Below are positions 26,281 to 27,797 of a stretch of 31,075 nucleotides of DNA, piece by piece (position 1 is the stretch's first letter; every line of letters starts with the position of its first letter). Origin of the DNA: Eledone cirrhosa (taxonomy: Eukaryota); assembly GCA_964016885.1 (NCBI GenBank), contig CAXHJY010000265.1, positions 1-31,075 on the forward strand, written 5' to 3'. The position numbers and the translations under genes are program-made. The notes beneath the pieces are model-generated. The model was given only the letters and a program-made list of their open reading frames with translations. It ran no database searches and was not told where the DNA came from.

Positions 26281-26551
26281 AAACGGAAAATATGAAACGA
26301 AATTTCATTTCCCACTCTTAGTACAGCTGTTACTTAAATATAAGTATGTACACCTACATATATATATGTATACAGACGTACAGTAGTATGTATATATATA
26401 TATATATACATACATACACACATATATATATGTACGTATGGATTCACCGAACATTTATTATAGTGCTCGGTGTGTTTGTAAACAAACATCCCGTATTAAG
26501 CCGTAGTGTCTAGCAACCATCTTTGCTCATTTGTTCAACACTGACAAAGGA

Positions 26552-26594
26552 ACGCTGTACTAGTTTCAAGCTTATTAGCTATCGTCAGCAACGT
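26552..26594 (-). ncRNA. Minimal type I hammerhead ribozyme (family D)
   Basis: Reverse complement of the 9111-9153 motif. Confidence 0.85.
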
Positions 26595-27050
26595 ATACCT
26601 TCCTGCCAGATTGTTGAACGTATATACTTACCTTATGCATATTAACGGCTGAGTAGCCCAATTTGCATATCGAGTGGGTTAATCGGCCGGGTGCGCCGAA
26701 AACGATAAACGGAAAAAATGAAACGAAATTTCATTTCCCACTCTTAGTACGGCTGTTACTTAAATATAAGTATGTACACGTACATACATATATGTATACA
26801 GACGTACAGTAGTATGTATATATATATACATACATGCACACATATATATATGTACGTATGGATTCACCAAACATTTATTATAATGCTCGGTGTGTTTGTA
26901 AACAAACATCCCGTATTAAGCTGTAGTGTCTAGCAACAATCGTTTTCGGTGCACCCGGCCGATTAACCCACTCGATATGCAAATTGGGCTACTCAGCCGT
27001 TAATATGCATAAGGTAAGTATATACGTTCAACAATCTGTCAGGAAGGTAT

Positions 27051-27093
27051 ACGTTGCTGACGATAGCTAATAAGCTTGAAACTAGTACAGCGT
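27051..27093 (+). ncRNA. Minimal type I hammerhead ribozyme (family D)
   Basis: Identical to 9111-9153. Confidence 0.85.
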
Positions 27094-27470
27094 TCCTTTG
27101 TCAGTGTTGAACAAACGAGCAAAGATGGTTGCTAGACACTACGGCTTAATACGGGATGTTTGTTTACAAACACACCGAGCATTATAATAAATGTTCGGTG
27201 AATCCATACGTACATATATGTATGTGTGAATGTATGTATATATATATACATACTACTGTACGTCTGTATACATATATGTATGTACGTGTACATACTTATA
27301 TTTAAGTAACAGCCGTACGAAGAGTGGGAAATGAAATTTCGTTTCATTTTTTTCCGTTTATCGTTTTCGGTGCACCCGGCCGATTAACCCACTCGATATG
27401 CAAATTGGGCTACTCAGCCGTTAATATGCATAAGGTAAGTATATACGTTCAACAACTGACAGGAAGGTAT

Positions 27471-27513
27471 ACGTTGCTGACGATAGCTAATAAGCTTGAA
27501 ACTAGTACAGCGT
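27471..27513 (+). ncRNA. Minimal type I hammerhead ribozyme (family D)
   Basis: Identical motif exactly 420 nt downstream of the previous copy. Confidence 0.85.
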
Positions 27514-27797
27514 TCCTTTGTCAGTGTTGAACAAACGAGCAACGATGGTTGCTAGACACTACGGCTTAATACGGGATGTTTGTTTACAAACACACCGAGC
27601 ATTATAATAAATGTTTGGTGAATTCATACGTACATATATATATATGTGTACATGTATGTATATATATATACATACTACTGTACGTCTGTATACATATATG
27701 TATGTACGTGTACATACTAATATATATATATATATTTATATATATATATGTATATATATATATATATATATATATTTATGTATATATATGTATATAT

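Follow-up and report, generated by a model that had tools for sequence, protein, structure and literature searches.

The window analysed here is a whole contig of Eledone cirrhosa, 31,075 nucleotides long, and at 26281-27723 it carries two arms of a ~421-nt unit that lie head-to-head (5' to 5'), are set in (TA)n and contain three hammerhead ribozymes. Window positions 26939-27359 serve as the reference unit, with unit coordinates q1-421, and S and T denote the short and the long end at which copies of the family stop. The parts of this insertion, and two further insertions of the same family in the window, are as follows.

25847-26281, no strand: left (TA)n target microsatellite, from sequence and repeat analysis
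26281-26944 (left edge 26279/26281), minus strand: T arm, q183-421 plus one full unit, ~1.57 units, 5'-truncated, from unit alignment
26281-26340, minus strand: the "tail", the ~60 nt between ends S and T, present at this insertion end only
26546-26604, minus strand: predicted type I hammerhead, minus copy; core start 26588, predicted cut between 26558 and 26557
26939-26944, no strand: 6-nt microhomology ATCGTT joining the 5' ends of both arms, read in the sequence
26939-27723, plus strand: S arm, q1-421 then q1-363, ~1.86 units, ending at S and running into (TA)n
27041-27099, plus strand: predicted type I hammerhead, first plus copy; core 27057-27063, predicted cut after 27087; helix I 27051-27056/27088-27093, helix II 27064-27077, GAAA 27078-27081, palindromic helix III
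27088-27507, plus strand: cut-to-cut monomer of 420 nt, 37% GC, a candidate circle by prediction
27461-27519, plus strand: predicted type I hammerhead, second plus copy; core start 27477, predicted cut after 27507
27719-27803 (left edge approximate), no strand: right (TA)n target microsatellite, from sequence and repeat analysis
8719-9361: second family insertion, minus-strand T arm 8719-8851 joined to plus-strand S arm 8850-9361; one hammerhead, core at 9117
9771-9927: third, small family insertion, minus-strand S arm 9771-9901 plus a ~25-nt plus-strand T end, the latter read by eye

The minus arm is 664 nt long and the plus arm 785 nt, and the units at the locus are 96-97% identical to the reference unit. 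The 3' end of the minus arm is the long family end T, which runs into (TA)n and is preceded by a short hairpin within the tail. A preliminary description of this DNA had placed about 1.55 monomers on the minus strand and 1.85 on the plus strand as an inversion, joined at an ATCGTT microhomology and flanked by (TA)n, with one invariant hammerhead per monomer and plus-strand cleavage sites 420 nt apart. This layout stands: the arm lengths agree, the microhomology and both microsatellite flanks are present, a 36-nt core is identical in all three hammerheads, and the predicted plus-strand cuts after 27087 and 27507 have the stated spacing. Among open reading frames of at least 90 aa in the window, only low-complexity frames overlap the unit.

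Further hammerhead-like motifs lie at 5403(+), 9563(+), 25203(-), 21474(+) and 28038(+), and as head-to-head inverted pairs at 16584(-)/16724(+) and 22223(-)/22382(+). The 5403(+) motif matches the pseudo-LTR (pLTR) of a coding Neptune-type Penelope-like element (PLE), family B, and stops at the short end of that family; the 9563(+) and 25203(-) motifs resemble one seen beside Hydra-type loci. A short element at ~27805-27910, which recurs in (TA)n, often as an inverted pair (also at L037, L047, L101 and L106; L numbers denote fetched loci), is probably another PLE-moved fragment. Two frames, 2916-3281(+) and 20936-21247(+), resemble by eye C-terminal pieces of a LINE (RTE-type) reverse transcriptase, and there are tandem repeats of 173 nt at 7662-8043 and of 214 nt at 13543-14087, the latter resembling a short interspersed repeat found in many fetched loci.

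In the structure predicted for each ribozyme, helix I measures 6 bp and comes with a distal helix, helix II has 4 bp above a U.U pair, and helix III is a single pair closed by the CUAG loop III. By the definitions with which Cervera and De la Pena 2014, in the part of that paper available to us, separate canonical metazoan type I from minimal hammerheads, this predicted structure is a canonical type I hammerhead. The preliminary description had called it minimal, which was wrong: a minimal hammerhead (min-HHR) has no helix III or loop 3 beyond the core, a long helix II and a short helix I, and is contradicted by the 4-nt palindromic loop, the 4-bp helix II and the 6-bp helix I with its distal helix. 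Because ACUAGU is self-complementary, a two-ribozyme (dimer) form is possible.

Of the 86 matches listed by an Rfam scan at E <= 5, none is to a hammerhead family, and what it did list are microRNA look-alikes formed by TA hairpins, all far under the gathering score; the ribozyme call therefore rests on motif, fold and covariation. Folded in isolation, the hammerhead is predicted to form helices I and II only, with z of -0.48, -2.42 and 0.05 for the three copies, two of the three folding no better than shuffles and helix III being absent from the monomer prediction. The cut-to-cut monomer folds far better than its shuffles (z -8.0, or -4.3 without the TA/CA block) and is predicted to be 69% paired as a circle. 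Across 317 motifs in the fetched loci, pair 3 of helix I covaries (U.G in 255, G.U in 31, A-U in 16) and the other frequent changes fall at N7 and in loop II; conservation of the core in this set is circular, since the patterns behind it require the core. A splice-donor-like motif at q75 was discarded as a candidate feature, because the sister subfamilies do not retain it.

In the animal's own 3.0-Gb genome (1,796 contigs) there are 5,299 perfect copies of the 36-nt core and none of the reversed control, so the ribozyme motif is not due to chance. A core pattern for the sister subfamilies gives a further 15,402 matches (control 0), copies are scattered over many contigs, and exact head-to-tail read-through junctions between units number 4,340. 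The sister subfamilies (L101 8368-9901, L219-L238) have units of 430-510 nt that are about 82-84% identical to the main unit, with compensatory changes in helix I and, by eye among the loci listed, apparently the same two ends (for example L234 and L237). Arrays can be long, as in the ~21-kb array of about 50 units at L211-L213, and higher-order periods in the long arrays L172, L193 and L218, an alternating one of 2 units and one of 6 units, indicate that local duplication also acts.

By structure, as far as it can be read from DNA, the unit is a non-LTR retrozyme. The family shows every retrozyme feature testable at this level: head-to-tail repeats of a few hundred bp, from dimers to large multimers; one predicted type I hammerhead in consecutive units; a high, dispersed copy number; and a non-coding sequence with no LTR structure and a GC content of 37%, where the criterion is below 45-50%. 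Metazoan non-LTR retrozymes were defined by Cervera and de la Pena 2020 (PMC7229834), who reported about 5,000 hammerheads in 350-390-bp repeats in mussel and considered PLEs a strong candidate for mobilisation. The Eledone family resembles the mussel, coral and axolotl retrozymes described there in its tandem non-coding units with one type I hammerhead each, its low GC, its thousands of copies and its strongly self-paired monomer. Its helix III is like that of axolotl HHR_Amex1 and the U.U base of its helix II like that of HHR_Amex2. The genomic units of 420-510 nt are at or above the reported RNA range of 170-400 nt. The portion of PMC7229834 available to us makes no mention of inverted copies or microsatellite targets, whereas fixed S and T ends and inversions dominate here.

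Copies of the family end either at q363 (S) or at q421-423 (T), some 60 nt beyond, and in each case the sequence continues into (TA)n. T followed by (AT)n has 3,012 exact matches in the genome (control 0), and S followed by (AT)n has 1,277 by a strict 32-nt pattern (control 0), two counts that are not comparable because the S pattern is the stricter; a shorter S pattern gave 7,727 matches but also 2,828 in its control, and was not used as a count. To see how the ends are combined, we compared 161 clusters from 166 loci and the window. The loci were chosen by similarity or by end pattern, with most of them taken from the beginning of contig C1, and since many were chosen by one end, the other end was left free for the S/T test. 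Two arms lying head-to-head were found in 89 of the 161 clusters, so the inversion is not special to the 26281-27723 copy. After 27 of these 89 were left out (24 with a broken end, 3 running off the locus), 59 of the 62 classifiable insertions proved to have one S and one T end, two being T/T and one S/S (P about 1e-14 in a binomial test against 50%; the 59 include two local duplicates). The arms overlap at 26 of the 59 S/T junctions. At six of them (L113, L128, L170, L172, L191 and L203) both arms have the same 5' coordinate, with 0.42 expected, which suggests that a minority of events went through fold-back or the repair of a palindrome. The retrozyme at L221 lies in a target other than a microsatellite, inside the open reading frame of a Hydra-type PLE, with a ~9-nt duplication.

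The family thereby displays the features of PLE mobilisation: two fixed 3' ends that define a tail, the tail at one of the insertion's ends, an inverted 5'-truncated arm, and 5' ends that are uniformly spread. Craig et al. 2021 (PMC8557442) describe PLEs with tails at one end and inverted arms, as well as non-autonomous head-to-tail PLEs. In Frangieh et al. 2024 (PMC11167929), both strands of AT-rich DNA were cut and extended by a PLE protein, with reverse transcription starting from two internal sites whose spacing corresponds to the tail; the hammerhead was dispensable for insertion in vitro, and the start site showed no difference between strands. Fixed ends on the one hand and two-site priming on the other make the signature here that of a PLE insertion. 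The two-end pattern is the PLE "tail" signature of two-site internal priming, with an asymmetry between arms that is absent from the assay of Frangieh et al. 2024 in the part of that work available to us: the anole enzyme in vitro showed no strand difference in start site, whereas the retrozyme arms almost always use different sites. Like Neptune-type PLEs as described in the sources at hand, the retrozyme has an inverted 5'-truncated arm, a tail at one end, a (TA)n target and a hammerhead upstream of two start sites; unlike PLEs it lacks an open reading frame, and its tail is ~60 nt against the 30-40 nt reported. The genomic evidence for PLE mobilisation of the retrozyme is good, and the copies were most likely inserted by enzymes of Penelope-like retrotransposons.

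The arms also bear on the RNA that was copied. A cleaved linear monomer would predict arms of at most about 214 nt (S) or 274 nt (T), with 5' ends piled at q150. The predicted cut is crossed by 83 of 118 arms, a count inflated by the picking of some loci on the ribozyme, and 50 of the 118 exceed one unit. The 5' ends avoid no part of the unit and do not cluster at the cut (3 of 244 at q146-154, 5.2 expected), and run-off there is not seen. Between q110 and q121 there are 12 5' ends where 7.0 would be expected (P 0.049); this cluster was picked out after looking, and we do not believe it. The p-distance between units is about 0.03 within an insertion and 0.054 between insertions, and rare alleles are shared at 13-24% within insertions in the larger classes against 1.2% between them (0 of 79 in the T0-S1 class). 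In a young subfamily the units are identical or nearly so in both arms; a private variant of L214 occurs in 12 of its 13 full units, over both arms, while none of the other 11 young insertions has it. One full unit recurs in identical form at three separate loci. Older insertions, 26281-27723 included, have units 3-5% apart, which, like the higher-order periods of some long arrays, local DNA duplication explains as well as rolling-circle copying does. The units of 26281-27723 show 2-5 differences each from the consensus over the scored positions. A shared A at q185 and a shared T/C at q258 had raised a dimeric template for this locus, but q185 is a CpG position with an A allele at 10% and q258 is also CpG-like, so these shared alleles are uninformative. 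The lack of 5' ends at the cut and the near-identical units in both arms of young insertions point to a template that was a circle or an uncleaved multimer, and the pattern of unit sharing agrees with a monomer circle, though a homogeneous multimer left uncleaved would agree as well. The preliminary description's proposal of a retrozyme or PLE parasite whose template was circular or multimeric is supported by the cut-crossing arms and the evenly placed 5' ends, and its two labels describe the same thing here.

A GIY-YIG search of the octopus's own genome finds many elements with both a reverse transcriptase and a GIY-YIG domain. Most of the local PLEs sampled carry a cysteine linker (CxxxxCxxC-type), a Neptune trait according to Craig et al. 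2021 (PMC8557442), and Neptune-type elements with long open frames are present (L091 4309-7122(-), 938 aa; L093 1775-5062(+), 1096 aa). In five families (A-E), counting by eye, the elements stop in (TA)n at either of two sites that lie about 40-66 nt from each other. Among 50 PLE loci, all seven head-to-head pairs of coding PLEs (L080, L093, L096, L100, L103 with L071, L106, L108) have, by eye, one short and one long end, so the retrozyme follows the same end rule as the local coding elements. The canonical hammerhead of the retrozyme is unrelated to those of the local pLTRs; the family A pLTR hammerhead, read by eye, has a U3-A8 core variant and a CCGG loop.

No sampled PLE has real sequence similarity to the unit, so any partner is a candidate only. 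Among 1,059 TA-adjacent 26-mers, the upstream end of Neptune-type family C is, self matches apart, the one that best matches the T end in all three subfamilies; since this match is ~14 nt long, of low complexity and noticed before testing, with two higher rows for the main subfamily that appear to be copies of the repeat itself, we treat it as a lead only. Another kind of PLE, called Hydra-type here after a motif that it carries, is abundant too (54,577 first-look candidates; loci L221 and L241-L246). Two candidate ties to it were discarded: L221 as a chimeric co-insertion that would name a Hydra-type partner, the retrozyme there simply sitting inside the PLE frame with its short duplication, and L246 as a composite family, its junction being single-copy.

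One rival explanation accepts the same PLE machinery and the same priming sites and replaces the circle by a long uncleaved read-through transcript, the hammerhead being weak, protein-dependent or vestigial. We consider this unlikely but a serious contender, as a homogeneous multimer fits every genomic test as well as a circle does, long arrays such as the about 50 units of L211-L213 are able to supply transcripts, the main substrate of the anole PLE in vitro was unprocessed RNA (Frangieh 2024, PMC11167929), and the one-pair helix III and the U.U base of helix II have both been linked, in the axolotl work available to us, to poor monomer cleavage. What weighs against it is that subfamilies about 15-18% apart keep the catalytic core intact and show covariation in helix I (in motifs whose patterns demand the core), that only one of 18 common polymorphic sites lies in the ribozyme, in loop II, and that the L214 variant, spread over both arms, is simplest to derive from one small template. 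It is very improbable that the unit exists only as the pLTR of a coding PLE, of which the copies would be truncated remnants, the outcome that the preliminary description had said would make this a pLTR remnant. In its favour, PLEs too have such ends, a tail, the inversion and a (TA)n target, Li et al. 2026 (bioRxiv 10.64898/2026.07.22.740005) derive retrozymes from pLTRs, and at L246 a sister-subfamily copy directly follows the 3' UTR of a Hydra-type PLE. However, that junction occurs once and six Hydra-type loci show no pLTR similarity, unit follows unit with no open reading frame in 4,340 exact junctions, and the PLE-protein matches in 20 of 167 sources are never in a fixed register with the unit. 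Where 5' flanks of the 68 inspected single arms match one another, they are other repeats, the sampled pLTRs (six Neptune-type, one Poseidon-like and those of Hydra-type families) are unrelated to the unit, and the repeat occurs in 3 of 50 PLE loci, as separate insertions. With no PLE frame in register in the 167 sources and 50 PLE loci, this reading appears unsupported in the sample, which is a part of the genome.

Spread as a satellite at the DNA level, by unequal crossover or fold-back, or LINE-type twin priming, is more improbable still. In unit coordinates, the first position of the S arm at 26939-27723 is the very one at which the T arm ends (q1), as twin priming predicts, the excess of same-coordinate junctions (6 of 59) points the same way, and higher-order repeats exist. 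Twin priming, suggested by the q1 junction, was rejected nonetheless, since starts at q1-6 are at chance level (4 of 244 against 3.5 expected); the LINE criterion of an inner start in register with the opposite outer end, together with a single fixed 3' end, does not describe these copies. Moreover, the two outer ends fall at sites fixed throughout the family, an outcome that neither model yields, 53 of the 59 junctions are not mirror-like, and copies are dispersed over many contigs; for dispersal, this rival is largely refuted. We give almost no weight to an assembly artefact produced by fold-back reads on a small unplaced contig. The window is indeed a whole 31-kb contig, and no public contig is listed that bridges the arm junction, an absence that proves nothing, but the arms differ in length, end and sequence, the same design with different junctions recurs on chromosome-scale contigs, and the unit is found at high depth in independent runs.

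We therefore favour, as the probable reading, a non-autonomous non-LTR retrozyme moved in trans by a PLE, most likely a (TA)n-targeting one of Neptune type; that PLE machinery carries the retrozyme, with circular and linear templates taken together, is very likely. Tandem copies would be transcribed, and neighbouring hammerheads would come together via their palindromic helix III, releasing by cleavage 420-nt monomers to be ligated into circles, a step modelled on the axolotl, mussel and coral retrozymes. A putative PLE reverse transcriptase/GIY-YIG protein would bind this RNA and nick both strands of a (TA)n tract. Priming would be internal, at S on one DNA strand and at T, ~60 nt away, on the other, where a short UAU match can pair with the TA primer, in keeping with the fixed ends and the pairing found there. 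Each cDNA would then run for a variable length round the template, often past the cut and for more than one turn, before stopping at random, as the observed arm lengths and 5' ends suggest. Truncated ends would be joined through the microhomology or short filler seen at the junctions, by a presumed joining pathway, to give the head-to-head insertion, and single-armed copies would arise when only one strand is extended. A more specific version, which we hold only tentatively, has a dimeric Neptune-type PLE protein on one small circular RNA, priming the two nicked (TA)n strands from the two fixed sites. Two rolling-circle reverse transcripts would thus be made from one circle, running in opposite directions along the genome, and the retrozyme would have kept its ribozyme while mimicking only the ~14-nt end motif of family C (L097/L103/L107).

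Non-LTR retrozymes and a proposed link to PLEs are already in print. A 2024 review, in the part available to us, repeats the PLE suggestion, and the giant squid genome paper, likewise as available, lists 235 hammerhead loci without analysing them. Li, Clavereau and Pollet 2026 (bioRxiv 10.64898/2026.07.22.740005) describe vertebrate retrozymes as non-autonomous PLE derivatives, and observed that 1 of 9 Xenopus dimers cleaved; they argue from co-occurrence and from pLTR homology across 35 genomes, mostly vertebrate and with no mollusc, and for tandems they leaned on local amplification and called the mechanism open. We reach the same conclusion, that retrozymes depend on PLEs, on the basis of the insertion signature, having found no pLTR homology. 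Non-autonomous Chlamys PLEs such as MRC1 (PMC8557442) are also non-coding, head-to-tail multicopy elements moved by PLEs, but in the account available to us these green-algal elements share 3' sequence with their partner and most have no hammerheads, unlike the retrozyme here. Our literature search, largely of the main texts of open-access papers, brought up neither a retrozyme from a cephalopod nor an analysis of S and T ends in any retrozyme.

The element type being already known, the gain is mechanistic. In the literature available to us, the enzyme that mobilises animal retrozymes is an open matter, as is the reason for the one-ended tail and the inverted arm of PLE insertions. A single genome offers a countable answer, two start sites with one used per arm (59 of 62), and the same rule in the coding Neptune-type elements (7 of 7). 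That the one-S-one-T rule is common to the local coding elements makes both the retrozyme-PLE partnership and the origin of the tail directly testable, and because very young copies and PLEs with open frames are found in the same genome, the partnership can be reconstituted with a short RNA. Should the reading with a dimeric PLE protein on one circle be true, it would explain the PLE tail and inversion together and would provide a natural test substrate of 420 nt.
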